Shown here: positions 1 to 21,087 of the stretch, one piece after another | Position numbering within the stretch: the stretch's first letter is position 1 | How the letters are laid out: each line of letters starts with the position of its first letter | NCBI GenBank assembly: GCA_965243105.1 | Contig: CBDEUC010000003.1 | Span: 2,088,370 to 2,152,369, forward strand | Length of the DNA stretch: 64,000 nt | Reading direction: 5' to 3' | Source: Gammaproteobacteria bacterium | Lineage (GTDB): Bacteria; Pseudomonadota; Gammaproteobacteria; Eutrophobiales; Eutrophobiaceae | The notes under the pieces: model-generated | What the model was told of the DNA's origin: nothing | Seen by the model: the letters and a program-made list of their open reading frames with translations, nothing else | Databases searched by the model: none | Position numbers and translations under genes: made by a program

Positions 1-1009
1 CGCCGTTTGCACCGCGGGCACCAAATGGTGATACCAGGTGAGCAGAGTCCCCTGCAAAGATTACCCTGCCATGCACGAATTTTTTCATACGCCTGCACTG
101 AAAGGTATAAAGACTGACCCAGTCATATTCGAACTCGATATCCGGCCCGAGAAAAGCACGCACCTTGGCATCGATATTTTCCTCTTTCATGACTTCTTCC
201 TTGTCGATGTCCCAGCCCATCTGGAAATCGATCCGCCAGATATCGTCGGCCTGTTTATGGATCAGGGAGGTTTGTCCGGGGTTGAACGGAGGATCAAACC
301 AGAATCGCCGTATAGCAGGAAAGTCAGCTTTCATTTTCACATCCGCAATAAGGAAGTGATCCTCGAAAATACGACCTTCAAAATCCAGGCCCATCATGTT
401 GCGCACCGGGCTCTTGTGTCCATCGGCTGCAATGAGGTAATCACCGCTGATCCGGTATTCGCCAGCGGGTGTTTTCACTACGGCGGTGACCTTGTCTTCA
501 GCAGTCTCAATGGCGATCACTTCGTTTTGCCAGCGAATTTCCGTATCACTGTAATCGCCGGATAACTCGATGAGGTACTCTTCAGCGTAGAATTGCTGGA
601 GGTTGATAAAAGCAGGGTACTTCTGCTCCTTGTCCATGAGCAGGTCAAAACTGTAGATTGGCTCGGGGTCTTCACCGAAATAAACCAGGCCCTGGTCCCA
701 GACCACGCCTTTTTCCACCATGCGATCACCGGTGCCAATACGATCAAGTATTTCCAGCGTGCGCTTGGCCCAGCAAATCGCCCGCGACCCATCACTTACG
801 CTATTGTATTTTTCCAGCACCACCGAGCGAATACCGCGTTGCGCAAGGCTTATAGCGGTGGCCAGGCCGATGGGTCCGGCACCAACGATGACTACAGGGA
901 AATGCAGTACTTCCCCGCTTTCTATTTCCCCGGGCGCAATGAAATCAAAAACCTGCCGCGCCTGCTTGGAGGTATTTTTTGCTTCGCCCAGTTCGCCATA
1001 CTTCGCCAT
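1..1009 (-). CDS. FAD-dependent aromatic-ring monooxygenase (phenol/hydroxyphenylacetate hydroxylase family); partial, 3' end lies beyond the window start
   Basis: Reverse-strand translation from ATG (complement of 1007-1009): MAKYGELGEAKNTSKQARQVFDFIAPGEIESGEVLHFPVVIVGAGPIGLATAISLAQRGIRSVVLEK... The GxGxxG FAD-binding Rossmann motif and, further on, IAADGHKSPVRNMMG and the GD FAD-contact motif (VIFAGDSAHLVSPFGARG, DSAH, class A flavoprotein monooxygenase signature) are present. The ORF runs out of the window. The plus-strand ORFs 38..565 and 593..1039 are shadow ORFs. Confidence 0.8.
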   Translation of the reverse strand, partial: MAKYGELGEAKNTSKQARQVFDFIAPGEIESGEVLHFPVVIVGAGPIGLATAISLAQRGIRSVVLEKYNSVSDGSRAICWAKRTLEILDRIGTGDRMVEKGVVWDQGLVYFGEDPEPIYSFDLLMDKEQKYPAFINLQQFYAEEYLIELSGDYSDTEIRWQNEVIAIETAEDKVTAVVKTPAGEYRISGDYLIAADGHKSPVRNMMGLDFEGRIFEDHFLIADVKMKADFPAIRRFWFDPPFNPGQTSLIHKQADDIWRIDFQMGWDIDKEEVMKEENIDAKVRAFLGPDIEFEYDWVSLYTFQCRRMKKFVHGRVIFAGDSAHLVSPFGARGANG

Positions 1010-1158
1010 TATGTCTTCATACGCAGGTTATCGAGGTGAAATGACAGCATACACGCGTCAGTCAATATTTCCGTCCCCAGATTTAGGGACAGATGAATAT
1101 CTTGCCTGTCCGCAGACATTTAAGTACTGTATTTTGCCTCGACAAAAGGGTGAAAATC

Positions 1159-2589
1159 ATGGGCGATAAAGAAAATTATCATATGGATCTCGAGGAGTTT
1201 CGCAAGAATGGCTACGCTGCCATCGACTGGGTGGTAGATTACCTGGAAAACGTGGAGACCTATCCCGTGTTATCCCAGGTAGCCCCTGGTGATATTCGAG
1301 CGAAATTGCCGGAATCCGCTCCCACAAAGGGTGAGAGCTTTGAAAGCATGTTGAAGGACGTCAACGATATCGTCATGCCGGGCATCACCCACTGGCAATC
1401 GCCAAACTTCTTTGCCTATTTCCCGGGTAACAGCTCCGCACCTGCCATCCTGGGTGAAATCCTCTCTGCTGGACTCAGCGTGCAGGGCATGCTCTGGGCT
1501 ACCAGCCCGGCATGCACCGAGGTGGAAACCCATATTATGGACTGGCTGGTAAAGATGCTGGACCTGCCGGAGAAATTTCTTTCACACACGCAAGGCGGAG
1601 GCGTGATACAGCATTCCGCCTCGGATGCCACGCTCTGTGCGTTGCTCGCTGCGAGGGAGAAAGTGAGTGACGTTAACAAGGTGGGTGGTACAGGCAAGCT
1701 CATTGCCTACACCTCGGCGCAGGCGCACTCTTCAATTGAAAAGGCCTGCATGATTTCCGGAATAGGAACCGAAAACCTGCGTCTCGTTGAAGTAGACGAG
1801 ATGTATCGCATGAAACCGGAGGCACTGGATGCGCAGATCCAGGTGGATATTGATGCCGGCTTGACGCCTTTCTTTGTTTGCACTTGCGTTGGTACGACTT
1901 CATCACTCGCGCTTGACCCGGTTGCTGACATGGCGGCGGTAACAAGAAAGCACAATCTCTGGCTCCACGTGGACGCGGCCATGGCCGGCCCTGCGGCAAT
2001 ATGTCCCGAGTTTCGCTTCATCAATGATGGGGTAGAGGATGCAGACAGCTACACCTTCAATCCACACAAGTGGATGTTTACCAACTTCGATTGTAATGCT
2101 TTTTTTGTTGCTGACAGGGCTGCGCTGATTAATGCGCTGAGCATATTGCCGGAATACCTCAAGAACGAGGCAACAAACGCGGGCGCAGTGTTTGATTACC
2201 GTGACTGGCATATTCCACTGGGCAGACGCTTTCGTGCTTTGAAGCTATGGTTTGTAATCAGGCACTATGGTGTAGAGGGCCTGCAGCATCATATACGTAA
2301 CCATGTGGCCATGGCGCAGGCGTTTAAAAACTGGATTGTTGAAAGCGATGATTTTGAGCTCGTGGTCGATAACCCGCTCAATACCATCTGCTTTCGTCAT
2401 AAAGGTGGTGATGAATTGACCGAGCAAATCATGCAGGACGTGAATGCATCGGGAAAGGCTTACCTGACTCACACGAAGCTTGATGGGAAGTACACGATTC
2501 GTTTTGCCGTGGGACAAACACGCACGGAAATGAGACACGTGGAGAGTGCTTGGGATTTGATCCAGGAAGCAGCGAGATCAGCTCGTTAA
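1159..2589 (+). CDS. Aromatic-L-amino-acid decarboxylase (PLP-dependent group II decarboxylase; tyrosine/DOPA decarboxylase-like)
   Basis: The ORF 1093..2589 has an internal ATG at 1159 preceded by aaaggg (MGDKENYHMDLEEFRKNGY...). The PLP-lysine motif NPHKW and the HWQSPNFFAYFP motif typical of AADC/TDC family enzymes are present. Length is about 476 aa. Confidence 0.85.
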   Translation: MGDKENYHMDLEEFRKNGYAAIDWVVDYLENVETYPVLSQVAPGDIRAKLPESAPTKGESFESMLKDVNDIVMPGITHWQSPNFFAYFPGNSSAPAILGEILSAGLSVQGMLWATSPACTEVETHIMDWLVKMLDLPEKFLSHTQGGGVIQHSASDATLCALLAAREKVSDVNKVGGTGKLIAYTSAQAHSSIEKACMISGIGTENLRLVEVDEMYRMKPEALDAQIQVDIDAGLTPFFVCTCVGTTSSLALDPVADMAAVTRKHNLWLHVDAAMAGPAAICPEFRFINDGVEDADSYTFNPHKWMFTNFDCNAFFVADRAALINALSILPEYLKNEATNAGAVFDYRDWHIPLGRRFRALKLWFVIRHYGVEGLQHHIRNHVAMAQAFKNWIVESDDFELVVDNPLNTICFRHKGGDELTEQIMQDVNASGKAYLTHTKLDGKYTIRFAVGQTRTEMRHVESAWDLIQEAARSAR

Positions 2590-2745
2590 AAACGATAAAG
2601 CCTGGAACCTGGATAAGTACACGTCACGCGGGGGGAAGTGAAGAGGGGTGGTGAGCGCTTTCCTATCCAGCTCCAGATTGCAGACCATTATGTGGTGGCT
2701 TTGTTACATTCCCTTGACGGCGGCATTACCATAATAAGAATTAAA

Positions 2746-3198
2746 TCACTCCAGGCTGTCCGCCTTATCCTGCAGCCTGCCAAGCAAGCCAGATAGTTGA
2801 TCTTTTTCTGCGGCGGTGAGACCGCTTAGCAGCATACCCTCAAAGCGCTCTGCCACAGGCCTTACTTCGCAATAGACTGCGTGTCCCGTTTTCGACAGGC
2901 GAAGTATGGATCGTCGTCGGTCCTCCTTGTCGAATTCCCGTACCAGCAGGTGGCGACCAAGCAGTTTTGCTACGGAGCGGGAGACCACCGATTTCTCTAT
3001 GCGCGTACGCTGGCACACATCGTCAGCTGCGCTGTCGGGGTATTCAGCCAACACCGCCATGATGCGCCACTCGGGCATGCTGATGCCGAACTTGTCCTGG
3101 TAAGTGGCTGCAATTCGACTACTCACGGTATTCGAAAGCAGTGACAAGCGGTATGGAAGAAAATCTTCTAATATCAGTGGCTTATCTTCTTTATTCAT
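2746..3198 (-). CDS. MarR-family transcriptional regulator, divergent from hpd
   Basis: 150-aa protein with a winged-helix MarR architecture (…EWRIMAVLAEYPDSAADDVCQRTRIEKSVVSRSVAKLL…). It is a paralog of the 13758..14225 MarR, sharing LPYRLS, EWRVMAVL, ADEVC and SREDRRRSIL blocks. Confidence 0.85.
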   Translation of the reverse strand: MNKEDKPLILEDFLPYRLSLLSNTVSSRIAATYQDKFGISMPEWRIMAVLAEYPDSAADDVCQRTRIEKSVVSRSVAKLLGRHLLVREFDKEDRRRSILRLSKTGHAVYCEVRPVAERFEGMLLSGLTAAEKDQLSGLLGRLQDKADSLE

Positions 3199-3223
3199 GG
3201 TCAGGCCCTGTGCTGGTTGACAA

Positions 3224-3272
3224 TAGTTGCAATGACAACTAATATTTATTTAGTTGTATTAGCAACTAAATA
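3224..3272. promoter_or_regulatory. Two adjacent palindromic operator-like sites in the marR/hpd divergent promoter region
   Basis: TAGTTGcaatgaCAACTA (3224-3241) has 6-bp perfect inverted arms. TATTTAGTTGtattagCAACTAAATA (3247-3272) has 10-bp perfect inverted arms. Both share the AGTTG/CAACT core. Confidence 0.6.
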
Positions 3273-3319
3273 ATAACCCATGCCGTTCGTAACAACAGCA
3301 CTAAATTTGGAGTTAAATA

Positions 3320-4396
3320 ATGGCCGATCTTTTTGACAATCCCATGGGACTGGATGGATTTGAGTTTGTTGAATTTGCATCACCGAGGCCCGGTGTTCTT
3401 GAACCCCTGTTTGAACTGATGGGCTTTACCCATGTTGCCAGGCATCGCTCCAAGGATGTCAATCTTTACCGGCAGGGAGACATCAACTTCATCATTAATA
3501 ATGAGAAAAAAAATTACACTGCCTACTTTACCGAGGAACATGGTCCCTGTGCCTGTGGCATGGCGTTCAGGGTAAAGGATGCCCATCATGCCTATAACAG
3601 GGCGCTGGAACTGGGCGCGCAGCCCATCGACATTCCAGTGGGGCCCATGGAATTAAGATTACCGGCAATAAAAGGAATTGGCGGTGCACCGCTATACCTC
3701 ATCGATCGCTACCAGCAAGGTGCTTCTATTTATGATATTGATTTTGAATATCTCGAAGGCGTCGAAAAAAATCCGCAGGGCTTTGGCTTCAAGCATATCG
3801 ATCACCTGACGCATAATGTGTATCGCGGCCGCATGGACTACTGGGCTAACTTTTATGAAAAGATTTTTAATTTTCGCGAGCTGCGTTACTTCGACATCAA
3901 GGGCGAATATACCGGTCTCACTTCAAAGGCCATGACCGCGCCGGATGGTCGCATTCGAATACCACTCAACGAAGAGTCGTCCCAGGGTGTGGGGCAAATT
4001 GAAGAATTCCTGATGGCCTATAACGGCGAGGGAATCCAGCATATTGCCCTTGCCACTGACGATCTCATAGCCAGCTGGGACAAGTTGAAAGAAAGCGGCA
4101 TTTTCTTCATGACACCGCCACCGGCTGCATATTATGAAATGCTGGAGGAGCGATTACCCGGGCATGGAGAACCCGTGGAGGAATTGAAAAAGCGCGGTAT
4201 CCTCGTGGATGGCTCCACCGATGGCGAAGAACCACGATTGCTCCTGCAAATATTCTCTGAAACCGTGATTGGCCCGGTGTTTTTTGAATTTATCCAGCGC
4301 AAGCAGGATGAAGGCTTTGGCGAAGGTAATTTCAAGGCTCTGTTTGAATCCATCGAGAGAGACCAGGTACAGCGGGGGGTTGTGCAGGCAGTCTGA
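3320..4396 (+). CDS. hpd: 4-hydroxyphenylpyruvate dioxygenase
   Basis: 358-aa protein [22 protein letters not shown]... with a two-domain VOC fold. It resembles bacterial HPPD (Pseudomonas Hpd) throughout, including the C-terminal [14 protein letters not shown] motif. Confidence 0.93.
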
Positions 4397-4536
4397 TCCA
4401 GCGGTTCATTCCCGTTCCGGGGGATCCTTACTGAAGCAGGATGCCAAATTTTCCTACTCTGGATACAATTAGCGCACGAGCAAGAAGCTGTTTCCTGATA
4501 ATGGCTTCCTGAGCAAAGCGATACCAGGGTAAATCA

Positions 4537-5076
4537 ATGCCGCTAAGCCTAGAAGTTACAATAACAAGCGATCGTCTCCTGTTGCGCCCCGTGGAAAAGG
4601 ACGATCTCGACGACCTCGCCCTGGTAAACGGGGACGAAGAAGTCACGCGCTACTTACCCTATGAAACCTGGCGCTCAAGGCAGGACGCCGAAGCATGGTA
4701 TGACAAGGTCATGGGTCTTGTGAGCCAGGGCAAAACGCTCCAGCTAGTCGTCGTCATGCAGGAAAACCACAGGGTCATTGGTAGCTGTCTTCTTTTTAAC
4801 TATGACGAGTCATCGGGCGTCGCAGAATTAGGCTATGTCACCGGTCGCGAATTCTGGAGACAGGGGCTCACGGAAGAGGCACTTCGTATGTTGATCGCGT
4901 TTGGTTTTGACAAGATCAAGCTACGAAGATTATGCGCGGTTGTTGAGACGGATAACCGGGCATCCATGTCGCTTCTTAGCAAGCTGGGTTTTTCCAGTGA
5001 AGGCAAGGCCAGCCCCGAGCCTGGAGATAACATTGAGCTCATGAAATTCGGCCTGCTTCGACAGGAATGGTGCTGA
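4537..5076 (+). CDS. GNAT-family N-acetyltransferase (RimJ/RimL-like)
   Basis: 179-aa protein with the GNAT acetyl-CoA binding region (…VIGSCLLFNYDESSGVAELGYVTGREFWRQGLTEEALRMLIAFGFD…). Confidence 0.8.
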   Translation: MPLSLEVTITSDRLLLRPVEKDDLDDLALVNGDEEVTRYLPYETWRSRQDAEAWYDKVMGLVSQGKTLQLVVVMQENHRVIGSCLLFNYDESSGVAELGYVTGREFWRQGLTEEALRMLIAFGFDKIKLRRLCAVVETDNRASMSLLSKLGFSSEGKASPEPGDNIELMKFGLLRQEWC

Positions 5077-5088
5077 GAAACATTTGTC

Positions 5089-6084
5089 ATGAACAGGGTT
5101 CCGCAACTGGATGATATCAGGGAAGCTGCTAACCGAATTACAGGCGCTGTTCATCGCACACCGGTTCTTACCTGCCAGGCACTGGATGAGAAGTGCTCCG
5201 CCAGGCTGTTTTTCAAATGCGAGAACCTGCAAAAGGTCGGTGCTTTCAAGGCACGTGGTGCCACCAATGCCACCCTTGGACTGGATGATGCTTCCCTCCA
5301 GAAAGGCGTAGCAACCCATTCTTCCGGAAATCATGCAGCGGCGCTTTCCTATGCTGCGGGCCTGAAAGGAATCCCGGCCTATATCGTCATGCCGGAAAAT
5401 GCACCGCGGGTAAAAGTGGAGGCGGTGCGATCCTACGGGGGCCACATCACCTTTTGTGAACCCACCCTGCAGGCCAGGGAGTCCGGTCTTGAAAGTATTG
5501 TAGCCACGACCGGTGCCAACGTGATCCATCCCTATAATGATTATCGTGTTATTACAGGCCAGGCCACCGCAGCGTTTGAACTGCTTCATGACGTGGAAAA
5601 CCTCGATGTGATCCTGGCTCCTGTTGGTGGCGGAGGATTACTCAGCGGTACCGCGCTAAGTACGGCGTACCTTTCGCCTTCGACCAGGGTCATTGCCTGT
5701 GAACCGGCCGGGGCGGACGATGCCTTTCGTTCCTTTAAAAAGGGGGAAATAGTCCCCTCGGTCAAGCCGAATACCATCGCGGATGGCCTGCTCACATCAC
5801 TGGGTGACCTGACTTTTCCCATTATCCAGGAATACGTGGATGATATCGTGACTGTCAGCGAAAAAGGTATTGTCCAGGCAACACGTATGATCATGGAAAG
5901 AATGAAATGTGTCGTTGAACCCTCGGCGGCGGTGACGCTGGCTGCTATTCTTGAAGGAAAGATTGATGTCGCGGGCAAGAACGTCGGCCTGGTCCTGTCC
6001 GGGGGTAATATAGAGCTGGAAAAATTCCTGCAGCAGGCCGAATCAATAGAGGCCAATTCAACAGGGGCAGGATCAAGTGTCTGA
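5089..6084 (+). CDS. PLP-dependent fold-type II enzyme of the serine/threonine dehydratase / serine racemase family (no regulatory ACT domain)
   Basis: PLP-lysine motif GAFKARGA, glycine-rich loop PVGGGGLLSG, 331 aa. It starts 13 bp after the GNAT stop. Confidence 0.8.
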   Translation: MNRVPQLDDIREAANRITGAVHRTPVLTCQALDEKCSARLFFKCENLQKVGAFKARGATNATLGLDDASLQKGVATHSSGNHAAALSYAAGLKGIPAYIVMPENAPRVKVEAVRSYGGHITFCEPTLQARESGLESIVATTGANVIHPYNDYRVITGQATAAFELLHDVENLDVILAPVGGGGLLSGTALSTAYLSPSTRVIACEPAGADDAFRSFKKGEIVPSVKPNTIADGLLTSLGDLTFPIIQEYVDDIVTVSEKGIVQATRMIMERMKCVVEPSAAVTLAAILEGKIDVAGKNVGLVLSGGNIELEKFLQQAESIEANSTGAGSSV

Positions 6085-6541
6085 ATATACCGCATGTGTA
6101 AAGTGGCAAAGAGGAGAACAGGATTTCACTGACAACAGTTACAGCCGTGGCCATGAATGGATATTTGATGGTGGTCTCAGCGTGCCTGCCTCATCATCTC
6201 CCCATGTTGTGCCCTTGCCAATGTCAGTGGAATATAACGTGGACCCGGAGGAAGCTTACGTTGCGGCCCTTTCCAGTTGCCACATGCTGTTTTTTCTTTC
6301 CATCAGTGCTGCACGGGGCTTCACCGTGGATCAATATGTCGATAACCCCAGGGGTATCATGGAAAAAGATAGTTCCAACAGGGTCAGCGTTACGCGTGTC
6401 GAGCTTTGTCCTGAAACTGATTTCTCTGGCGAGGAACCTACAGGGGATGTCATTCATGAAATGCATGAACTGGCACATAAAAAGTGTTTCCTGGCCAATT
6501 CAGTCAGGTCGGAAATATCCATCAAGCTTGTTAAGGACTGA
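6077..6541 (+). CDS. OsmC/Ohr-family peroxiredoxin-like protein
   Basis: 154-aa protein with OsmC-family architecture and conserved Cys residues (SSCHMLFF…, …HKKCFLANSV). It overlaps the upstream gene by 8 nt, which suggests an operon. Confidence 0.75.
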   Translation: MSEYTACVKWQRGEQDFTDNSYSRGHEWIFDGGLSVPASSSPHVVPLPMSVEYNVDPEEAYVAALSSCHMLFFLSISAARGFTVDQYVDNPRGIMEKDSSNRVSVTRVELCPETDFSGEEPTGDVIHEMHELAHKKCFLANSVRSEISIKLVKD

Positions 6542-6544
6542 AGC

Positions 6545-7360
6545 ATGCCGATCCTGAATTCGGGGCGGATCAAGATTGATTACCTGGATGCCGGTCGAGG
6601 TCCCGTCGTCGTGCTGGTGCACAGCGCAGCCAGCAACTATAAACAATGGCGAAAACTGGTCGATGATTATCAGCACCGTTTTCGTTTCCTGGCGGTTAAT
6701 CTTTATGGTTATGGAGACACCACTCCCTGGCCGGGCTCAAAGGTTCAGTCCATGGAGGACCAGGTAAAGCTGGTTTCGAGTATTTGCCACCTCGTTGACG
6801 AACCGGTATTCCTCGTGGGTCATTCCTTTGGTGCGTCAGTGGCGGCATGGACTGCGAGGGAACTTCGCGAAAAAATAAAAGCCCTGGTTCTACTGGAAGC
6901 CAACCCGTTTCCCTTGCTTGAAAAGGAAAACAACCGGGGTGGCTACGATGAAATCCTGCTGTTAAGGGAAATCATCAAGAGTGAAGGTGATAACGGAAAC
7001 TGGGACATCGTTGCCGAGTACTTTGTCAATTACTGGCTGGGTGATGGTATGTGGAACAAGCTACCGCCTGATCGAAGAGAGGTGTTTACCGCCGCATTAC
7101 CAAATAATTACCACGAGTGGGATTCCATCATGGGTCTACCGGCGAATGACAGCAGCTGGCTCAGTATCGACGCCAACACCCTGTTTGTTCGAGCGCGCCA
7201 GACCGTAAATTCAATTACCGGGATTTACGAGGTGTTTCAGCAAATGTGTCCGCACTGGGAATTTCTCGTGGTTGAGGAAGGTGGCCACATGGCCCCTGTG
7301 ACACATCCGGATGCGATTAATCCGCACATCATTGACTTCCTGGATCAAAATCGTAGCTAG
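6545..7360 (+). CDS. alpha/beta-fold hydrolase
   Basis: Nucleophile elbow GHSFG, an N-terminal HG-type oxyanion region (VVLVHSAASN) and a late His (GGHMAP). 271 aa. It starts 4 bp after the osmC-like stop. Confidence 0.8.
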   Translation: MPILNSGRIKIDYLDAGRGPVVVLVHSAASNYKQWRKLVDDYQHRFRFLAVNLYGYGDTTPWPGSKVQSMEDQVKLVSSICHLVDEPVFLVGHSFGASVAAWTARELREKIKALVLLEANPFPLLEKENNRGGYDEILLLREIIKSEGDNGNWDIVAEYFVNYWLGDGMWNKLPPDRREVFTAALPNNYHEWDSIMGLPANDSSWLSIDANTLFVRARQTVNSITGIYEVFQQMCPHWEFLVVEEGGHMAPVTHPDAINPHIIDFLDQNRS

Positions 7361-8250
7361 TCAGCCGTGGCAGGTTTATAAAGAACAATATAGTTACCCA
7401 CCAGGATCAGCACAAACCCTGCGATAGCAACAAGTGTCCACTGGTAGTTTTCAAATATCGTGGAAATACCGAGGGCCACAACCGGGAACAACACGGCCGC
7501 GTAGGCGGCCTTGTCTGCACCGATTCTACCCACCAGTGTCAGGTAGCTGCCAAAGGCGATTATGGTTCCAAAGAAACTGAGATAAGCCAGCGAAATACTG
7601 TAGGCCCAGGCCGGGTCGTAATTAAACTCGGAACCCTGGATAAGTGCGTAAGTGAGCATGATAAGGGAGCCGTATGTCATTCCCCAGGCATTGGTCTGGA
7701 TGATGGGCAGGTCATTTTTCTGGTTGCGTGCTGAGAGCAGGTTGCCAAGCGACGCCGAGAAGGTTGCAACAAGGCAATACCATAGCCCGGTCAAGCTGGA
7801 TTTATCATTTTCAATTACGCTGACTTCAGACCAGAACACCGAAGCGATCCCGACAATACCGATCAGTGAGCCAATGACCGTGCGAATCTCAACCCGCTGC
7901 CCCATGAAGATCGCGCCATTAACAATATTCATCAGGATTACCGTGGAGAACAACAGGGCGACGACACCAGAAGTTAACAGGCCAGTGGCCCAGTAGAAAA
8001 TCAGGTAGTTAATGCAGTACAGGCAGAGCCCCTGCAAAAACATGAACAGGTGTTCGCGGGGAGAAAATCGCAGGCTTCGTTTTGTAAGAATACAAAATAT
8101 AAAAAGAATGATTGCCGCTGCCACGAAGCGATACACCAGTGAAACTTCCGGCGCCACGACTCCAAGCTGGAACTTGATAGCAAACCAGGTGGTACCCCAG
8201 ATCAGAACCGAGCTGAGGTACAGGGAAGCGGAATGCATAAGAATATTCAT
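7357..8250 (-). CDS. DMT-superfamily (EamA-like) membrane transporter
   Basis: 297-aa protein with about 10 TM segments and duplicated EamA domains (MNILMHSASLYLSSVLIWGTTWFAIKFQL…). Confidence 0.8.
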   Translation of the reverse strand: MNILMHSASLYLSSVLIWGTTWFAIKFQLGVVAPEVSLVYRFVAAAIILFIFCILTKRSLRFSPREHLFMFLQGLCLYCINYLIFYWATGLLTSGVVALLFSTVILMNIVNGAIFMGQRVEIRTVIGSLIGIVGIASVFWSEVSVIENDKSSLTGLWYCLVATFSASLGNLLSARNQKNDLPIIQTNAWGMTYGSLIMLTYALIQGSEFNYDPAWAYSISLAYLSFFGTIIAFGSYLTLVGRIGADKAAYAAVLFPVVALGISTIFENYQWTLVAIAGFVLILVGNYIVLYKPATAD

Positions 8251-8305
8251 AGCGACGGGCCTGGCTTTTTAACACGGCGCAGCGAGAAACTGCGCCCTTC
8301 CTGGT

Positions 8306-8968
8306 CTAGATGGAAACGGACATTTCCGGCACGTTGTCCGGAACGACCAGTTCCCCTGCGGTCAGCTTGACGATTTCTTCAACGCTGACACCAGGCGCCC
8401 TTTCCACGAGGTGAAACTTGCCATCGCTGATTTCCACGTAAGCAAGATCGGTAACAACCTTTTTTATGCAGGCGGCACCGGTCAGCGGCAGGCTGCACGC
8501 TGGCAGTAACTTTGACTCGCCGTGCTTACTGGCATGGGTCATGGTAACGATGATGTTATCCGCACCCGCAACCAGGTCCATGGCACCCCCCATGCCCTTG
8601 ATCAACTTACCCGGGATCATCCACGAGGCGATATTACCCTGTACGTCCACCTCAAAGGCGCCCAGCACGGTGAGATCCACGTGCCCACCCCGGATCATGG
8701 CAAATGAATCGGCGGATGAAAAAATAGATGCACCGGTAATCGCCGTGACAGTTTGCTTTCCTGCATTGATCATGTCGGCGTCCAGTTCTTCCTCGGTAGG
8801 AAACGGTCCCATGCCAAGAAGACCATTCTCGGACTGCATCATGACTTCCATGCCTTCGGGAATGTAATTTGCCACCAGGGTAGGAATACCAATACCCAGG
8901 TTTACGTAGTAACCGTCCTGCAGCTCCTGCGCCACGCGCATTGCCATTTGTTCTCGTGTCAGTGCCAT
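8306..8968 (-). CDS. scoB: 3-oxoacid CoA-transferase subunit B
   Basis: 220-aa protein with the ENGLLGMGPFP motif carrying the catalytic Glu of family I CoA-transferase B subunits. It sits directly downstream of subunit A. Confidence 0.88.
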   Translation of the reverse strand: MALTREQMAMRVAQELQDGYYVNLGIGIPTLVANYIPEGMEVMMQSENGLLGMGPFPTEEELDADMINAGKQTVTAITGASIFSSADSFAMIRGGHVDLTVLGAFEVDVQGNIASWMIPGKLIKGMGGAMDLVAGADNIIVTMTHASKHGESKLLPACSLPLTGAACIKKVVTDLAYVEISDGKFHLVERAPGVSVEEIVKLTAGELVVPDNVPEMSVSI

Positions 8969-8981
8969 TACAGTAATTCCC

Positions 8982-9683
8982 TCATTCTGCTCGAATCGTG
9001 CGCTGCTCTATGCGCTTCTCAAACGTATTCTCGATAAGACGATTAACATATATGCCCGGTGTATGAATCTGTGACGGCTCAAGTTCCCCGGGCTCTACGA
9101 TTTCTTCAACTTCAACCACGGTGATCCTGCCGGCGGTTGCGGCCATTGGGTTAAAGTTCTGCGCCGTGTGACGATAGATCACATTGCCATAACGATCGGC
9201 TTTCCAGCCCCTGACGATGGCAAAGTCGCCGGTGATGGCCTCTTCAAGAATATAATTACGTCCATTAAATTCGCGCACTTCCTTGCCTTCCCCCACCGGA
9301 GTGCCGTAGCCGGTTGCCGTGTAAAATGCCGGGATGCCCGCGCCGCCTGCGCGCATTTTCTCCGCCAGCGTGCCCTGGGGTGTCAGTTCTACTTCAAGTT
9401 CATCACTCAGGAATTGCCGTTCAAACTCCGCGTTTTCCCCAACGTAGGAAGACACCATTTTGCTTATCTGTTTCCCCTGCAGCAGGATCCCCAGGCCAAA
9501 ATCATCTACACCACAGTTATTTGAAACGACGGTAAGATCATTGACGCCCATCTCCTTGATCTGGGCAATGCACCCTTCAGGAATGCCGCACAGGCCAAAG
9601 CCACCAGCAATGATAGTCATGCCACTTTCAAGGCCCGCCATCGCCTCTTCAAAACTGCCTACAACCTTGTCAAAACCTGACAT
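8982..9683 (-). CDS. scoA: 3-oxoacid CoA-transferase subunit A
   Basis: 233-aa protein [36 protein letters not shown]…, typical of CoA-transferase A subunits (ScoA/AtoD). Confidence 0.88.
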
Positions 9684-9779
9684 AAATTACTCCGTGAAAA
9701 TTTTCTTCAGAACGCCAAAATGGCGCTAGCATAGCAATAACAACACGATTTTATAAATCAAATAGCACTTCCGTAGCGG

Positions 9780-9804
9780 CCTGGATAGTCCACGTCAATC
9801 CAGG
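9780..9804. promoter_or_regulatory. Inverted repeat CCTGGAT-N11-ATCCAGG upstream of scoAB
   Basis: 7-bp perfect inverted arms between the hydrolase stop and the scoA start. It is not followed by a T-tract, so it is more likely an operator than a terminator. Confidence 0.3.
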
Positions 9805-9854
9805 TGCCCTGTACAGCCTCGTTTTCGCGCGCTGAGCCTGGATCAGCGTCAATT

Positions 9855-10634
9855 TTATAACCCGTCTACAAAGCCCTGCATTAACTCCAGGCAGGTTTCT
9901 TGCTGGTCCCTGAAGGGAGTGTGCCTGCAGTTGCCCAGCATATGTAAATCCGAAGGGCCGCTGCATTGCGTTGCAATAGCATCCAGCTGTGCCCGGGTGG
10001 CATACTCATCCTCGTTTCCCTGCACCAGGAGCAGGGGGCAGTGCACGTCGGGAAGTATTTCCTCAATGTTCCATTCAAGCACTTCCGGGTTTGCCCAGAA
10101 GTCATACCATCCAAAAAATGCGCCATCCACATCATCATGGTAGGCCGCCAGTTTTTCGCGCAGGCCAGACTCTTTATAGGCATTGAGCACGGGTACCACG
10201 CTACTCCAGGTCTCTTTCTCTACGAAAGTATGGGGTGCCATCAGCACCATGCCCGTAGTAGTGGGCAGCTGGTTTGTTGCCGCGTAAATCAGAGCAATGG
10301 TGGCACCGTCACTGTGTCCAATCAGTACGGGTTCTTCAATTTCCATAGATACCAGCAGGGGTGCAAGCACATCGCAGGCCTCGTAGCTATGGTAGTCATT
10401 TTGCCTGGGCTCACTTAAACGGCTGGATTTGCCGTAGGATTCCCTGCTGTATAAAAAAACGTCCTGGCCGGTGCGCTCATGTAACTTTTGCGGAAAATCC
10501 TTCCAGGCAGAAACCGAACCCAGCCCTTCATGCAACAGGACCAGGGTCTTTGCCGAATTTTCTTCTCCCCGAATCCAGCGATATTCGATACTGGCATCAC
10601 CAAGACTGCATATGCCGTCTTCCTGGTTTGGCAC
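9855..10634 (-). CDS. alpha/beta-fold hydrolase
   Basis: Nucleophile elbow GHSDG and an HEGLGS-type oxyanion region. 259 aa. It is the last gene of the FAH-maiA-hydrolase operon, with a 7-bp gap to maiA. Confidence 0.78.
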   Translation of the reverse strand: MPNQEDGICSLGDASIEYRWIRGEENSAKTLVLLHEGLGSVSAWKDFPQKLHERTGQDVFLYSRESYGKSSRLSEPRQNDYHSYEACDVLAPLLVSMEIEEPVLIGHSDGATIALIYAATNQLPTTTGMVLMAPHTFVEKETWSSVVPVLNAYKESGLREKLAAYHDDVDGAFFGWYDFWANPEVLEWNIEEILPDVHCPLLLVQGNEDEYATRAQLDAIATQCSGPSDLHMLGNCRHTPFRDQQETCLELMQGFVDGL

Positions 10635-10641
10635 GGCGGCT

Positions 10642-11292
10642 TCAGGCTACCGCGTCGGGTTGCGCTTCGGGGATTGCAGCCTGGAATGCCTCGAGCTCAA
10701 GGCAGTTATTTTCTATCTCCAGCAGTGTCGGGAAATCCTCGAGCGGAACGTCAAAACGGTGTGCGTTGTATAACTGCGGAACCAGGCAGATATCGGCGAT
10801 ACTGACTGAATCGCCCATGCAATAGGGGCCTTTCCAGGAAGAAGCGCCGAGAGTTTTTTCCAGCGCATTAAAACCCAGTACTATCCAGTGTACGTACCAC
10901 GCATCTTTTTTACTGTCGTCTACTTTCAATTCATGCTTGAGATACTTGAGGACCCTCAGGTTATCAAGCGGATGAATATCACAGGCTATGCTGAGCGCAA
11001 GCTGCCTGGTCATGGCACGTTGCTCCGCGTCACCAGCTATTAATGGAACCTGGGGATAGCGCTCATCGAGGTATTCCATGATGGCCAGTGACTGGCTTAA
11101 GGACACATCACCATCAACAAGGGTTGGTACAAGACCCTGGGGGTTTATGGCTTTATATTCATCCTTGTGCTGTTCGCCCCCGTCTTTGAGCATGTGAACA
11201 GCAACAGTTTCATATTCCAGCCCTTTCAGGTTTAATGCAATCCGCACCCTGTAGGCCGCAGATGAGCGCCAGTAGCTGTAGAGTTTGATCAT
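10642..11292 (-). CDS. maiA: maleylacetoacetate isomerase (zeta-class GST)
   Basis: MIKLYSYWRSSAAYRVRIALNLKG… has the characteristic SSxxYRVRIAL zeta-GST N-terminus. 216 aa. It overlaps the FAH stop by 4 nt. Confidence 0.9.
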   Translation of the reverse strand: MIKLYSYWRSSAAYRVRIALNLKGLEYETVAVHMLKDGGEQHKDEYKAINPQGLVPTLVDGDVSLSQSLAIMEYLDERYPQVPLIAGDAEQRAMTRQLALSIACDIHPLDNLRVLKYLKHELKVDDSKKDAWYVHWIVLGFNALEKTLGASSWKGPYCMGDSVSIADICLVPQLYNAHRFDVPLEDFPTLLEIENNCLELEAFQAAIPEAQPDAVA

Positions 11293-12281
11293 TCCGCAGG
11301 AGTGTACTGTTTAACTTTCTGATCGATCTTGCCGAAAATGGACTCACCATTTTTATCAAGCATCTCTATTTCAATGCGGTCACCAAACTGCATGAAAGGT
11401 GTTGAAGGCTTGCCGTCGGCAATGGTTTCAAGACAGCGAATTTCTGCCAGGCACGAGGAGCCATCCTTGCTGCCAACATTGGCAATAGTACCGGAGCCGA
11501 TGACTGTTCCAGCCATGAGAGGCCTTGATTTTGCGGCGTGGTTAATGAGCTGGGGAAAATCAAACACCATGTCGACACCGGCATTGGGTGTGCCTACCTT
11601 TTCCCCGTTCAGGGTGCTGTGCAGGGGCAGGTGCACGCGTTTACCATCCCAGGCATCACCAAGTTCGTCGGGTGTGATCGCCACCGGTGTAAAAGAAGTG
11701 TGGGGCTTGGACTGGTAAAAACCAAACTGCTTTGCAAGCTCTGCCGGGATGAGGTTTCTCAGTGAGACATCATTGACGAGCGCAATAAGCTTGATGTGCT
11801 TGCCGGCATTGTCTACCGACACGCCAGCGGGGACATCATCAGTAAAGACGACAACTTCCGATTCAAAATCAATTCCCCAGGCCTCGTCCTGAACCGGGAT
11901 ATCATCATGGGGACCCAGGAAAACATCGGATGCACCCATGTACATCAGGGGATCTGTCCAGAATGATTCCGGAAGCTCTGCGCCCCTGGCCTTTCGCACC
12001 AGTTCCACATGGGTGACATAGGCACTGCCATCTGCCCAGTGGTAAGAGCGGGGCAGGGGAGCTGCAAGTGTGCTGGTATCAAGATCAAAGCTGTCCTCTG
12101 CCGTACCTTCCTGCAGCTGATCAAACACCGCTTCAAGCTGCGGCGCTTTTTCACTCCACTCGTCCATGGCTGCCTGCATCGTGTGCGCTATTGCCGGCAC
12201 TTTTACAGCCCTTGTCATATCACGGTTAACCACGATAAGCGTGCCGTCACGGCCGCCTTCTTTGAGACTCGCTAGTTTCAC
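11289..12281 (-). CDS. fumarylacetoacetate hydrolase (FAH)-family enzyme, probable fumarylacetoacetase of the homogentisate pathway
   Basis: 330-aa FAH-fold protein (…GSGTIANVGSKDGSSCLAEIR…). It is translationally coupled to maiA and divergent from hmgA. The short form differs from the 430-aa HmgB type, so function is assigned by context. Confidence 0.75.
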   Translation of the reverse strand: MKLASLKEGGRDGTLIVVNRDMTRAVKVPAIAHTMQAAMDEWSEKAPQLEAVFDQLQEGTAEDSFDLDTSTLAAPLPRSYHWADGSAYVTHVELVRKARGAELPESFWTDPLMYMGASDVFLGPHDDIPVQDEAWGIDFESEVVVFTDDVPAGVSVDNAGKHIKLIALVNDVSLRNLIPAELAKQFGFYQSKPHTSFTPVAITPDELGDAWDGKRVHLPLHSTLNGEKVGTPNAGVDMVFDFPQLINHAAKSRPLMAGTVIGSGTIANVGSKDGSSCLAEIRCLETIADGKPSTPFMQFGDRIEIEMLDKNGESIFGKIDQKVKQYTPAE

Positions 12282-12364
12282 TTGTTTCTCCCGCTGTAGA
12301 GCAATACCCGGACCTTACCATCATTCTAGCTCCTGGATTGAGCGAATTCCGGATTCTTGAAATT

Positions 12365-12380
12365 AGTTACATTTGTAACT
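12365..12380. promoter_or_regulatory. Palindromic operator-like site in the FAH/hmgA divergent promoter region
   Basis: AGTTACAttTGTAACT has perfect 7-bp inverted arms. Its AGTTRC half-site is related to the hpd-region palindromes. Confidence 0.55.
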
Positions 12381-12420
12381 ATACTGCTTTTATTCTATAC
12401 GTCAAGCAGAGGTTATCGAC

Positions 12421-13752
12421 ATGGCTACCGTGATGAAAACGGATAATGACGCACAAGCGGATGCTGCCGCGGAACTTGAATACCTGAATGGTTTCGGCAA
12501 TGAACATCAATCCGAAGCCCTTGAGGGTGCCTTACCGCGTGGACAATTTTCGCCACAAAAAGTCCCCTACGGGCTGTATGCGGAGAAATTCTCTGGTACA
12601 GCCTTTACCGCACCAAGGGCAAGCAATTTTCGCAACTGGTTTTATCGAATCCGGCCGTCCGTTGTGCAGGGTGATTTTGAGCGCATGGATAATGGCCTTA
12701 TCAGGAGCGGTCCAATCACCGAGATCGAAACACCGCCAAACCAGCTGCGCTGGGATCCCTTTCCTGTTCCAGAGACGTCCACGGATTTTATCGAGGGTTT
12801 AACTACGATTGCAGCCAACGGTAACGTGGGTGTGACCGGGATCGGTATCCACATGTACCTGGCTAACAGCAGCATGGAGAAACGTTTCTTTTATAACAGT
12901 GACGGTGAGTTACTTATCGTACCGCAACAGGGGACATTTCGAGCCCATACTGAATGCGGTGTACTGGATGTTCGACCGGGCGAGATATGCGTGATTCCAC
13001 GGGGTATCAAGTTCCGTGTTGTATTACCGGATGGGCCGAGTCGTGGGTATGTGTGTGAGAACTATGGAGCACAGTTCCAGCTTCCGGAACGTGGCCCGGT
13101 GGGTTCAGACGGTTATGCTAACGACCGGGATTTCCTTGCTCCCGTTGCAAGCTATGAAGACCGGGAAGGCGAATTTGAGCTGGTAAACAAGTTTATGGGT
13201 AACCTGTTTCGCTGTGATATCGGTCATTCACCGCTCGATGTCGTGGCCTGGGTCGGCACCGCGGTTCCCTACAAGTATGATCTTTCACTGTTTAATACCA
13301 TGAACACGGTGAGTTACGATCACCCTGATCCATCCATCTTCACGGTACTTTCATCCCAGCTTGATTCACCGGGCGTGGCTAACGCGGATTTTGTTATTTT
13401 CCCGGCGCGATGGATGGTGGCCGAGGACACGTTTCGCCCACCCTGGTATCACCGTAACCTGATGAGTGAATTCATGGGTTTGATCCATGGTATGTACGAT
13501 GCCAAGCCCGAGGGCTTTGTGCCAGGCGGTGCAAGTTTACACAACAGCATGTCAGCCCATGGGCCTGATGTTGATGCCTTTGAGGGGGCGTCAAATGCTG
13601 AGCTTAAACCACATCGATACGACAATACCCTGGCTTTCATGTTTGAATCGCGCTTTGTTATCCAGCCAACAAGGTATGCACTTGAGTGTGAGCAGCGACA
13701 GGCCAACTACGTACACTGCTGGCAGGGCCTCAACAAGCATTTCGGTAAGTAA
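12421..13752 (+). CDS. hmgA: homogentisate 1,2-dioxygenase
   Basis: 443-aa protein matching HGO across its length (…[46 protein letters not shown]…, …[21 protein letters not shown]…). Confidence 0.93.
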
Positions 13753-13757
13753 GCAAA

Positions 13758-14225
13758 ATGACAAAGTCGGTGCCAGGCATTCTTGACCTGAAGAACTTCC
13801 TGCCTTATCGCCTGTCTGTTGTGACAAACAAGGTCAGCAGTAACCTGGCCAGTATGTATTCGCTCAAGTTTGACCTGAGCATTGCCGAGTGGCGTGTCAT
13901 GGCAGTACTGGGGCAGCAAAGCGATCTGTCGGCAGATGAAGTCTGTCGTGAAACAGAGATGGACAAGGTGACAGTAAGCCGCGCCGTGACAAAATTGCTC
14001 AAGAAGAAACTGTTGCAGCGCAGTTTTTCCAGGGAAGACCGGCGTCGCTCTATTCTTTGCCTGTCCAGCCGCGGCTACTCTACCTACTCGCAGATAATCC
14101 CCATGGCATTGAGCTATGAGGAATCCCTGCTGTCCGCGCTAAGTGAAAAAGAGGCCAGGCAACTGGATGAACTGCTGCTCAAGTTGAACGGGCAGGCACA
14201 GGCGTTGGCTCAATCTGAAGGCTAA
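13758..14225 (+). CDS. MarR-family transcriptional regulator (paralog of 2746..3198)
   Basis: 155-aa protein that starts 5 bp after the hmgA stop. It has strong block similarity to the hpd-linked MarR. Confidence 0.85.
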   Translation: MTKSVPGILDLKNFLPYRLSVVTNKVSSNLASMYSLKFDLSIAEWRVMAVLGQQSDLSADEVCRETEMDKVTVSRAVTKLLKKKLLQRSFSREDRRRSILCLSSRGYSTYSQIIPMALSYEESLLSALSEKEARQLDELLLKLNGQAQALAQSEG

Positions 14226-14260
14226 CAGGCGAATCGGCGCTGGCGTTGGTCGCCTATGCG

Positions 14261-18135: not shown

Positions 18136-18690
18136 ATGTCGAACAGTTTCTGGGAATTTTCCGTAGCGACCTATGGCAAAGATGGTGTGCCCGCGGCCTG
18201 TCTTGGCCTGCAGGATAGCCTGGATGTGGATGTTAATGTCCTGCTGTTTTGTTGCTGGTTTGGACTGACACGTGGTCATATCGAGGAAGAAAGATTTACG
18301 CAACTGCTGGCAGCTTCTGAATTGTGGGCGAGCAGGGTAGTGAGACCTCTTCGAGGAGCCAGGCGCTGGATGAAGGAAGAAGTCTATGAATCTCTCCAGC
18401 TGGATACAGAGAGCGTGTCGAGCCTGCGTGAAAAAATAAAGAGTAACGAGCTTGGTGCAGAGAAAATCCAGCAGGATTTACTACTGGCAATTGTGGAAGA
18501 TCTTGCGGGTAAGCAGATGAACGTGGAAGAGCAGCTGGATGCGGTGCTTGATAATATACGGCGCTACCTCGGTAAAAAGGAAATCCAGGTTGTTGGCGCC
18601 AGCGCCGCTGACCTTTGTCATGTTATCTCGTCTGCCAGTGACGATTTTGATAGCGCTGCCGTGAGAGCAAGGCTTGAACAACACTCCTAG
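18136..18690 (+). CDS. hypothetical protein, DUF2390/TIGR02444-like
   Basis: 184-aa protein MSNSFWEFSVATYGKDGVPAACLGLQD…. Family assignment is from memory. Its stop overlaps the ubiX stop by 4 nt (convergent). Confidence 0.5.
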   Translation: MSNSFWEFSVATYGKDGVPAACLGLQDSLDVDVNVLLFCCWFGLTRGHIEEERFTQLLAASELWASRVVRPLRGARRWMKEEVYESLQLDTESVSSLREKIKSNELGAEKIQQDLLLAIVEDLAGKQMNVEEQLDAVLDNIRRYLGKKEIQVVGASAADLCHVISSASDDFDSAAVRARLEQHS

Positions 18691-19259: not shown

Positions 19260-19463
19260 TGCTGTGGTCCTCTTTTCATCACCAGTGGGAGTATAGCAGT
19301 AAGCCCCTGCGCGTTTACAAGGGGCGAAATATTGCAATGCACCAAATCACTTATTTCGCAGACTGGAACCTGTGCTGAATTCATCTTCAAGTCGTCGTGA
19401 CAAAGGTTATACTTTGAAAAATCCCGACCTGTTTCAGTCAATATTTAATAGAAGGTAATCATC

Positions 19464-20828: not shown

Positions 20829-20904
20829 ACCCTGCAATCCTGGAAAAATAGTCTACACTTATATATGAGTGTTCCTCACTATAAATGCCACCATTCGTGG
20901 CAGT

Positions 20905-20940
20905 AGCCCCCTTGCGCCGGCGATGGGGGCATTTGTGTTC
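20905..20940 (+). terminator. Probable rho-independent terminator after the ubiD-family gene
   Basis: GCCCCCttgcgccggcgatGGGGGC stem followed by ATTTGTGTT. It is preceded by a smaller hairpin TGCCACcattcGTGGCA. Confidence 0.45.
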
Positions 20941-21087
20941 AACTGTTCAAACTGGCCCCCGGGAGGTGTTACCACCAGTCTGGATTCGAACAGATTCCAT
21001 GTATTAAAATTGGAGCCGTATTAAGGTTGTTTTGTCGCATTCATTTTTTCTGTTAATTGCTGGACGACAATCGCGGGGAAGATAATA

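Follow-up and report, generated by a model that had tools for sequence, protein, structure and literature searches.

A 64,000-nucleotide stretch of the genome of an uncultured gammaproteobacterium (contig CBDEUC010000003.1, positions 2,088,370 to 2,152,369; here called the window) begins with genes for the breakdown of tyrosine through homogentisate. Beside them lie genes for a class A flavin-dependent aromatic hydroxylase, an aromatic L-amino-acid decarboxylase (AADC) that uses pyridoxal phosphate (PLP), and an aldehyde:ferredoxin oxidoreductase (AOR)-like enzyme. Do these accessory genes form a second way into the pathway, and for which substrate? An initial annotation of positions 1 to 14225 had proposed a parallel branch from tyrosine through tyramine, 4-hydroxyphenylacetaldehyde, and 4-hydroxyphenylacetate (4-HPA) to homogentisate. 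All three accessory enzymes proved to be real, the AOR-like gene lying just outside that range. On balance, we favor a homogentisate island with a MarR-controlled core and a peripheral hydroxylase-decarboxylase module, the AOR-like gene probably standing apart. The part of the proposed branch that stood is the entry of a hydroxyphenylacetate through the flavin hydroxylase, to which the family context of this enzyme points. The four-step tyramine chain was not established, because no gene for the amine-to-aldehyde step was found in the window or the neighborhoods inspected, the AOR gene context points elsewhere, the characterized hydroxylase MhaAB is reported to be specific for 3-hydroxyphenylacetate (3-HPA), and the decarboxylase has a glycine at a substrate selectivity position.

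Gene content was determined from an open reading frame (ORF) map, translations, and profile searches against Pfam and NCBIfam. The Pfam scan covered 41 window ORFs, including 20 larger ORFs in the rest of the window, and left out about 23 shorter ones (at least 110 amino acids [aa]) beyond 19 kb. Gene context was read from related loci in metagenome-assembled genomes (MAGs; labels L001 to L033, L037, etc.) and from eight plasmid loci of cultured Proteobacteria that carry hydroxylase homologues (Microbulbifer, Ralstonia, Sphingobium, Sulfitobacter, Dinoroseobacter, Paracoccus, Sphaerotilus, and Sinorhizobium). The close relatives of the window proteins all come from MAGs of uncultured Gammaproteobacteria. 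The order of the UbiD/UbiX, gamma-glutamyltransferase (GGT)-AOR, MarR-hmgA, fumarylacetoacetate hydrolase (FAH)-maiA-scoAB, hpd operon, AADC, and hydroxylase genes is kept in a relative at 77% to 88% protein identity (L028 and L032) and partly in L033. Because the same arrangement is retained at this level of divergence, the clustering is not due to chance.

Homogentisate core and predicted MarR regulon

The canonical pathway genes named in the initial annotation (hpd, hmgA, an FAH-family hydrolase gene, and maiA, with scoAB) were all confirmed by coordinates and profile scores (Table 1), and the window carries what appears to be a complete, MarR-associated homogentisate island. Hpd would convert 4-hydroxyphenylpyruvate to homogentisate, and HmgA would open the ring. 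MaiA would isomerize maleylacetoacetate, the short FAH-family hydrolase would split fumarylacetoacetate, and ScoAB, encoded by adjacent genes, would activate the released acetoacetate to acetoacetyl-CoA. The fumarylacetoacetase role of the hydrolase is assigned from the position of its gene, which sits between maiA and hmgA and overlaps maiA by 4 bases, because the protein, at 330 aa, is of the short type and finds its best solved match in an uncharacterized FAH-family structure of Sinorhizobium meliloti (3LZK; 423 bits). It matched no curated fumarylacetoacetase model in NCBIfam and is not a canonical FahA; the corresponding slot in the Sinorhizobium fredii hmg operon is taken by a short FAH-family gene as well (~338 aa).

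The two MarR-type regulators are 49% identical to each other. MarR1 is 35% identical to the MarR proteins of the Microbulbifer and Sphingobium hmg clusters, and MarR2 is 41% identical to that of Microbulbifer. Perfect palindromes of the form TAGTTR-N6-YAACTA occur three times in the 64 kb, all lying within the hpd and hmgA/FAH promoters and overlapping the region's best sigma-70-like sites. The boxes upstream of hpd are kept in L019 and L028, and the hmgA/FAH box is kept in L032 and L033. Because the palindromes are confined to these promoters and retained in relatives, the core probably forms one MarR regulon, with the accessory genes outside it. Most likely, these promoter-overlapping operators are where the two paralogous repressors act on the hpd operon and on the divergent units of hmgA and FAH-maiA-scoAB. 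No operator shared with the hydroxylase, AADC, or AOR gene was found; no box lies upstream of any of them. The hydroxylase/AADC intergenic region of the window has an element of the form CTGTCCC(T/C)AAATCTG in common with L001 and L019.

Hydroxylase at the edge of the window

The window edge truncates the hydroxylase gene, with hpd 2.3 kb and hmgA 11 kb away. The encoded fragment scored 485 bits with NF006002, and the full-length protein P0001 (557 aa; 100% identical over the 336 window residues) scored 767 bits with NF006002/PRK08132 against a cutoff of 416. A grouping with MhpA phenylpropionate hydroxylases, the outcome that the initial annotation had named as contrary to its proposal, did not appear: the scores with the MhpA models were all below cutoff (best, 220 bits versus 390; equivalogs, at most 213 versus at least 546) and identity to Escherichia coli MhpA was 24%, which rules out a 3-(3-hydroxyphenyl)propionate hydroxylase. 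Identity to the plasmid-borne hmg-cluster hydroxylases of cultured bacteria reached 49% to 53%, and P0001 nested among these homologues in a neighbor-joining tree.

In all eight plasmid loci, the gene order is MBL-fold hydrolase, hydroxylase, and an ORF of 60 to 75 aa, which all records but one label DUF2783. The loci come from alpha-, beta-, and gammaproteobacteria, and in seven of the eight the trio lies beside or inside hmgA/fahA/maiA clusters. The plasmid matches included no hydroxylase homologue from Pseudomonas, Paraburkholderia, or Cupriavidus. The characterized counterpart is MhaAB, the two-component 3-HPA 6-hydroxylase of Pseudomonas putida U, in which a 566-aa flavoprotein and a 60-aa coupling protein convert 3-HPA to homogentisate (PMC3053370); in Paraburkholderia xenovorans LB400, the MhaAB homologues (BxeA2727 and BxeA2726) adjoin hmgA1B1C1 (PMC3053370). 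From this family context, that is, the presence of the subfamily in hmg clusters and the MhaAB layout, we regard it as probable that the window enzyme converts a hydroxyphenylacetate to homogentisate and so provides a second entry into the pathway. The precedent makes 3-HPA the most obvious substrate, and 4-HPA or a substituted analogue is possible. Degradation of 4-HPA via homogentisate has been reported for Pseudomonas acidovorans and Azoarcus evansii (PMC3053370), and a full-text literature search yielded no gene assigned to a 4-HPA 1-hydroxylase; a search on DUF2783 returned nothing usable.

We also counted in favor of this reading that the hydroxylase neighbors in relatives make or sense arylacetyl compounds. 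Among the more distant relatives, a nitrilase gene and a gene for a FeaR-like AraC regulator (132 bits, below the cutoff of 199) are each found near the hydroxylase gene in eight or nine loci. L023 has an aldoxime dehydratase and a PaaK-like ligase gene nearby. In L002, a pyrroloquinoline quinone (PQQ)-dependent dehydrogenase gene (PF01011; L002:8132-9901) lies between the decarboxylase and hydroxylase genes, with multicopper oxidase and cytochrome c genes upstream of the decarboxylase gene.

Two further arrangements were observed around the hydroxylase gene. The region L023:1703-11887, from a Woeseiaceae MAG, has the order TonB receptor, nitrilase, FeaR-like AraC regulator, aldoxime dehydratase (PF13816), PaaK-like ligase, MBL hydrolase, hydroxylase, and DUF2783, which looks like an aldoxime-nitrile-arylacetate route joined to an MhaAB-like module. 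In L003 (positions 6747 to 8644) and in the contig carrying homologue P0008, a second, paralogous hydroxylase gene (564 aa; 37% to 41% identical), followed by a 62-aa ORF, lies ~5 kb downstream of the first, and the window genome may have the same second gene just past the left edge.

Aromatic amino-acid decarboxylase

The other half of the peripheral module is transcribed divergently from the hydroxylase gene. An alternative ATG is present at position 1093, and the start at 1159 is favored because the proteins of relatives are 476 to 477 aa long. The best solved relatives are the plant tyrosine/DOPA/tryptophan decarboxylases and animal DDC (411 to 511 bits), the nonaromatic group II enzymes, which the initial annotation had seen as the contrary placement, reaching at most 164 bits. 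Large-loop tyrosine and small-loop histidine residues distinguish decarboxylases from aldehyde synthases among the plant enzymes (10.1101/404970). The window enzyme has both residues and the PLP-binding lysine; its PEYLKN and AQAHSS motifs are intact, as are those of four relatives. An aldehyde synthase, which would have made an amine oxidase unnecessary, is ruled out by the intact catalytic tyrosine and histidine. Because its lysine, histidine, and tyrosine residues are as in the plant decarboxylases and not as in the aldehyde synthases, the enzyme should release an amine rather than an aldehyde. It would thus turn an aromatic amino acid into an arylethylamine, and its type is clearer than its substrate or its presumed catabolic role. 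The position equivalent to residue 370 of CrTDC is occupied by glycine, as in the plant indole-preferring enzymes, whereas the phenol-preferring ones have serine; with glycine at this selectivity position, tyrosine cannot be named as the substrate.

The decarboxylase gene is next to the hydroxylase gene in L001, L002, L019, and L028, and its linkage in four related MAG loci extends to hpd. In L019, the hpd-AADC-hydroxylase trio stands apart from the remaining hmg island, beside a Cas12a locus. Decarboxylase homologues at 45% identity, with the tyrosine and histidine kept, were also found inside homoprotocatechuate (hpaD/E/H/I) meta-cleavage operons on plasmids of Ruegeria sp. TM1040 (L041:2390-9856) and Shinella (L042:1658-9914), which lends independent support to a catabolic role. 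No amine oxidase gene adjoins either hpa locus, and among the plasmid loci, an aldehyde dehydrogenase gene occurs only in Shinella. The literature search returned no paper on a decarboxylase inside hpa or hmg clusters. It is plausible, although we hold it only tentatively, that the decarboxylase feeds the hydroxylase or a related arylacetate route.

As a side observation, a Cas12a-Cas4-Cas1-Cas2 locus directly adjoins the hpd-AADC-hydroxylase trio in the related MAG OZ000552.1 (L029:435-6170).

AOR-like gene

The AOR-like protein is a distant but genuine member of its family, from an uncharacterized subfamily; it scored 188 bits against Pyrococcus furiosus AOR (1AOR) and keeps the equivalents of Glu313 and His448 as well as both pterin-binding DxxGxD/C motifs. 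Its cluster motif is altered: the first cysteine aligns to a serine and an extra cysteine follows four residues later, giving Cx3Cx3C plus a distal cysteine versus the canonical Cx2Cx3C...C. The altered pattern is conserved in 120 of 120 close homologues. The family is mostly known from anaerobes, and the AOR of Aromatoleum aromaticum is reported to oxidize phenylacetaldehyde. The window enzyme could oxidize an arylacetaldehyde to the arylacetate. However, the AOR and GGT genes more probably make up a separate unit, and we consider it unlikely that the enzyme supplies the aldehyde-oxidation step of the module.

The AOR gene and hmgA-MarR2 are transcribed toward each other. Upstream of the AOR gene lies the GGT gene, whose product has an N terminus that looks, by eye, like a signal peptide. 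The two genes remain paired in L032 and L033, with 36 and 89 nucleotides between them. In relatives at ~72% identity, the AOR gene is part of an operon with the order MarR-amidase-AOR-boxC-boxB, in which BoxC and BoxB were recognized at the equivalog level. This operon lies 6 to 8 kb from the hydroxylase gene and opposite a molybdenum-hydroxylase/PaaK-like ligase unit. The AOR and hydroxylase genes are at most 10 kb apart in 11 of 28 related loci, with different genes between them. In L018 and L027, these intervening genes are absent, apparently lost, and the AOR gene abuts the hydroxylase gene. We rejected this proximity as independent evidence of coupling and counted it weakly, since boxCB, AraC, nitrilase, and TonB-receptor genes lie between the two; it is best read as one ancestral aromatic-catabolism island and not as repeated independent recruitment.

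Two observations concern AOR genes elsewhere. In L037 (positions 7911 to 14966) and also in L005, L007, L008, L012, L014, and L017, the MarR-amidase-AOR-boxC-boxB operon is divergent from genes for a Fer2/MoCoBD/FAD_binding_5 molybdenum hydroxylase, a PaaK-like CoA ligase, and an SNF transporter. Nothing resembling boxA or boxD turned up in these seven loci, and one might speculate that AOR stands in for the BoxD aldehyde dehydrogenase; the literature search on AOR together with box genes gave nothing usable. The aerobe Thermus thermophilus HB27 carries a 56% identical AOR-like copy on its megaplasmid pTT27 (L039:7932-9644), next to a type III-B CRISPR module, and the neighbors of this copy are uninformative.

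Table 1. Genes and putative regulatory sites in the homogentisate island of the window
Feature	Position	Strand	Basis or remark
Class A FAD monooxygenase, subfamily PRK08132 (MhaA-like); N-terminal 336 of 557 aa, cut by window edge	1-1009	-	PF01494, NF006002
Hydroxylase/decarboxylase divergent intergenic region	1010-1158		No MarR box
Aromatic L-amino-acid decarboxylase, group II PLP, 476 aa	1159-2589	+	PF00282, 398 bits
MarR1, divergent from hpd	2746-3198	-	PF12802
hpd promoter-like site TTGACA-17-TAATAT with two perfect palindromes TAGTTG-N6-CAACTA (putative MarR operators)	3217-3268		Palindromes at 3224-3241 and 3251-3268
hpd, 4-hydroxyphenylpyruvate dioxygenase	3320-4396	+	TIGR01263 equivalog, 408 bits (cutoff, 277)
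GNAT acetyltransferase, RimJ/RimL type	4537-5076	+	Pfam/NCBIfam
Fold-type II PLP (PALP) serine-racemase/dehydratase-like enzyme	5089-6084	+	Pfam/NCBIfam
OsmC-like protein	6077-6541	+	Pfam/NCBIfam
Alpha/beta hydrolase behind hpd	6545-7360	+	Pfam/NCBIfam
EamA-family (DMT) transporter	7357-8250	-	PF00892
scoB, 3-oxoacid CoA-transferase subunit	8306-8968	-	TIGR02428 subfamily level, 328 bits (cutoff, 244)
scoA, 3-oxoacid CoA-transferase subunit	8982-9683	-	TIGR02429 subfamily level, 244 bits (cutoff, 129)
Alpha/beta hydrolase between maiA and scoA	9855-10634	-	PF00561
maiA, maleylacetoacetate isomerase	10642-11292	-	TIGR01262 equivalog, 296 bits (cutoff, 171)
FAH-family hydrolase, short, 330 aa, fumarylacetoacetase position	11289-12281	-	PF01557, PF18288
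Divergent hmgA and FAH promoter-like sites with perfect palindrome TAGTTA-N6-TAACTA	12357-12405		Palindrome at 12364-12381
hmgA, homogentisate 1,2-dioxygenase	12421-13752	+	TIGR01015 equivalog, 662 bits (cutoff, 511)
MarR2, directly downstream of hmgA	13758-14225	+	PF12802
AOR-family (tungsto- or molybdo-pterin, Fe-S) aldehyde oxidoreductase, 573 aa	14261-15982	-	PF02730, 181 bits; PF01314, 205 bits
Gamma-glutamyltransferase homologue, directly upstream of AOR gene	16144-18027	-	PF01019

Weighing of alternative explanations

Several findings weigh against an MhaAB-like hydroxylase joined to the decarboxylase in one module. Only chance-level matches came out when the window was searched for a DUF2783/MhaB-like ORF, and L028 is also without DUF2783. 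In L019, the DUF2783-MBL pair lies 7 kb downstream of the hydroxylase gene and is not adjacent to it. A small ORF directly follows the hydroxylase gene in L023, L024, and L026 and does not adjoin it in L002, so that in the window lineage, as judged from the closest relatives L002 and L028 (the downstream side of the hydroxylase gene being outside the window), neither the MBL-hydrolase gene nor the DUF2783 partner is next to the hydroxylase gene. P0001 is called MhaA-like from its architecture and context, and MhaAB itself is reported to be highly specific for 3-HPA rather than for 4-HPA (PMC3053370).

The link between the two genes is open to similar objections. Neither the hydroxylase/AADC spacer nor the AOR upstream region, when searched, contained a MarR box. 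On the P0008 contig (87% hydroxylase identity), neither AADC nor hpd is beside the hydroxylase gene, so the AADC-hydroxylase linkage is not universal. The relatives that share it are close (75% to 96% identity), and common descent thus explains part of its conservation. The amine-to-aldehyde step also has no gene in the window: the initial annotation had reported no amine oxidase or transaminase, and this held for the ORFs scanned with Pfam, in which, as in the related gammaproteobacterial neighborhoods, we found no amine oxidase, amine dehydrogenase, transaminase, or NAD-dependent aldehyde dehydrogenase. The plasmid neighborhoods inspected had no amine-to-aldehyde enzyme either.

In the leading alternative, the homogentisate core works together with the hydroxylase only, whereas the genes for the decarboxylase and the AOR are neighbors by descent. 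The decarboxylase could then make a biogenic amine, for example, an N-acetylated arylalkylamine together with the GNAT acetyltransferase encoded in the hpd operon, or a host signal, and the AOR could work with the GGT or amidase gene or with Box-pathway genes. The convergent AOR gene with its conserved GGT partner, the amidase-AOR-boxC-boxB operon of relatives, the upstream regions free of MarR boxes, the lack of an amine-oxidizing gene nearby, the GNAT gene itself, and the P0008 contig with a hydroxylase gene but neither AADC nor hpd all agree with this explanation. However, L019 keeps the AADC-hydroxylase-hpd trio together apart from the island, decarboxylase homologues occur within hpa operons of cultured alphaproteobacteria, and in 11 of the 28 loci no more than 10 kb separates the AOR and hydroxylase genes despite differing intervening genes. 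We regard this alternative as rather unlikely and keep to the MarR-controlled core with a peripheral hydroxylase-decarboxylase module.

The opposite extension of that reading would join the decarboxylase, the AOR-like enzyme, and the partner-less hydroxylase into one funnel leading to homogentisate from aromatic amino acids or from arylethylamines and arylacetaldehydes of host origin. An oxygen-compatible Cx3Cx3C AOR would replace the NAD-dependent aldehyde dehydrogenase, and the amine step would be carried out by an enzyme type not yet recognized in these genomes. We consider such a funnel quite improbable.

Also very improbable is the full chain of the initial annotation, in which tyrosine is decarboxylated to tyramine by the AADC, converted to 4-hydroxyphenylacetaldehyde by an enzyme encoded elsewhere, oxidized to 4-HPA by the AOR, and hydroxylated to homogentisate, with side-chain migration, by a 4-HPA 1-hydroxylase. 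The three enzymes belong to real families and are intact, the family of the hydroxylase has ties to homogentisate clusters, and the 4-HPA route reported for P. acidovorans and A. evansii (PMC3053370) is one for which the full-text search gave no assigned gene, which makes this family a candidate. Yet the chain would duplicate the Hpd route for the same substrate, its amine-to-aldehyde enzyme is missing from the window and from the related neighborhoods inspected, the hydroxylase precedent is specific for 3-HPA, the glycine at the substrate-size position of the decarboxylase does not indicate tyrosine, and the AOR gene context points elsewhere. Because the characterized family member prefers 3-HPA and Hpd already handles the carbon of tyrosine, the tyrosine/tyramine/4-HPA wording is the least supported part of the proposal.

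Least probable of all is that the side module brings aromatic amino acids refractory to Hpd, such as m-tyrosine or the halogenated or differently modified tyrosines of an animal host, to homogentisate through a 3-hydroxyphenylacetate-type intermediate: the 3-HPA specificity of MhaAB, the wide decarboxylase pocket (glycine at the 370 position), several related MAG isolate names that resemble sponge metagenome bins, and the nitrilase, aldoxime dehydratase, and amidase genes beside the hydroxylase gene in relatives, which fit oxime, nitrile, and amide derivatives of arylacetates, would suit it, but the habitat is read from isolate names only, the choice of substrate rests on no direct evidence, and the amine-to-aldehyde gap applies equally.

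Passenger genes and the rest of the window

The four passenger genes downstream of hpd are tightly packed or overlapping, and all are kept in L028 and L032. Among solved structures, those nearest to the PALP enzyme are serine racemases (337 bits to 6LUT); with the BhcB model, this enzyme scored 443 bits, below the cutoff of 550. The alpha/beta hydrolase gene between maiA and scoA has a counterpart after maiA in L033.

Adjoining the GGT-AOR pair, at positions 18136 to 22472, are genes for a DUF2390 protein, a UbiX flavin prenyltransferase, a UbiD-family (de)carboxylase, and, beyond one unannotated 156-aa ORF, an AIM24-family protein. The DUF2390-UbiX-UbiD-AIM24 block is mostly kept in L032 and L033, and the region may be a prenyl-FMN-dependent aromatic acid decarboxylase unit. 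Farther on, the window encodes a Ser/Thr protein kinase fused to an HDOD domain (27051-29465), a 511-aa ORF with no Pfam match (48651-50186), and two SNF-family sodium symporters (29661-31061 and 60657-62045). The cargo of bacterial SNF symporters is often an aromatic or branched-chain amino acid.

Novelty and significance

The homogentisate core is textbook tyrosine catabolism, already known, and alone would not matter. MhaA-like hydroxylases beside hmg genes likewise have precedents in P. putida U and LB400. As far as the literature searched goes, three features appear to be undescribed: the pairing of a partner-less hydroxylase gene, in divergent orientation, with that of a true aromatic amino-acid decarboxylase; the recurrence of such decarboxylases inside arylacetate clusters; and the oxygenase-associated AOR subfamily.

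Proteins annotated as PRK08132 "FAD-dependent oxidoreductase" are encoded together with a DUF2783 protein and an MBL-fold hydrolase consistently in homogentisate clusters across Proteobacteria, which supports their annotation as MhaAB-like, homogentisate-forming hydroxylases and makes the family a testable candidate for the 4-HPA 1-hydroxylase. The aromatic decarboxylase genes beside homogentisate genes in the window and inside hpa operons in Ruegeria and Shinella raise the question of how the amine is converted to the aldehyde. For an enzyme family whose known members are mostly from anaerobes, it is unexpected that the AOR subfamily with the altered cysteine motif should be widespread in Gammaproteobacteria rich in oxygenases.

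Comparison with known systems

The window AOR shares with the P. furiosus enzyme both AOR domains, the metal-site glutamate and histidine, both pterin-binding motifs, and four cysteines. However, the two are related at only 188 bits, the window enzyme has the Cx3Cx3C spacing, and there are no genes for ferredoxin-like or FAD subunits beside its gene. Unlike the tungsten AORs, its subfamily is found in oxygenase-rich genomes and in the aerobic T. thermophilus.

The E. coli pathway for tyramine and phenylethylamine (TynA, FeaB, and FeaR) uses the same chemistry as that proposed here, from arylethylamine through arylacetaldehyde to arylacetate, and a FeaR-like AraC regulator (132 bits, below cutoff) is encoded near the hydroxylase gene in relatives of the window. 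Among the window ORFs scanned, neither the TynA nor the FeaB enzyme type was found; here the amine would be made in the cell by the decarboxylase and not taken up, and the proposed end point is homogentisate as opposed to homoprotocatechuate or phenylacetyl-CoA.

The plant and animal AADCs (CrTDC, PsTyDC, and human and pig DDC; 411 to 494 bits) have the PLP lysine, small-loop histidine, and large-loop tyrosine in common with the window decarboxylase, which differs from them in being bacterial, in being encoded inside a catabolic island, and in having glycine where the plant tyrosine/DOPA enzymes have serine. Its closest plasmid-borne homologue (Nostoc sp. UHCC 0302, L040:7001-8422; 60% identity) has phenylalanine at the catalytic large-loop tyrosine and, unlike the window enzyme, looks like an aldehyde synthase.

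The homogentisate clusters of P. putida and P. xenovorans LB400 (hpd and hmgA-hmgB[fahA]-hmgC[maiA]) resemble the window in having hpd, hmgA, maiA, a hydrolase gene in the fumarylacetoacetase position, a dedicated regulator, and a peripheral hydroxylase at the cluster edge. The window differs in its short 330-aa FAH-family type (related to 3LZK) in place of canonical fahA, in the scoAB genes built into the FAH-maiA unit, and in the four unrelated-looking genes behind hpd. The hydroxylase is, like MhaA, a large class A flavoprotein (~560 aa) encoded near homogentisate genes. However, where the plasmid loci have an adjacent DUF2783-size ORF and MBL gene, the hydroxylase gene of the window is instead paired divergently with that of an aromatic amino-acid decarboxylase.

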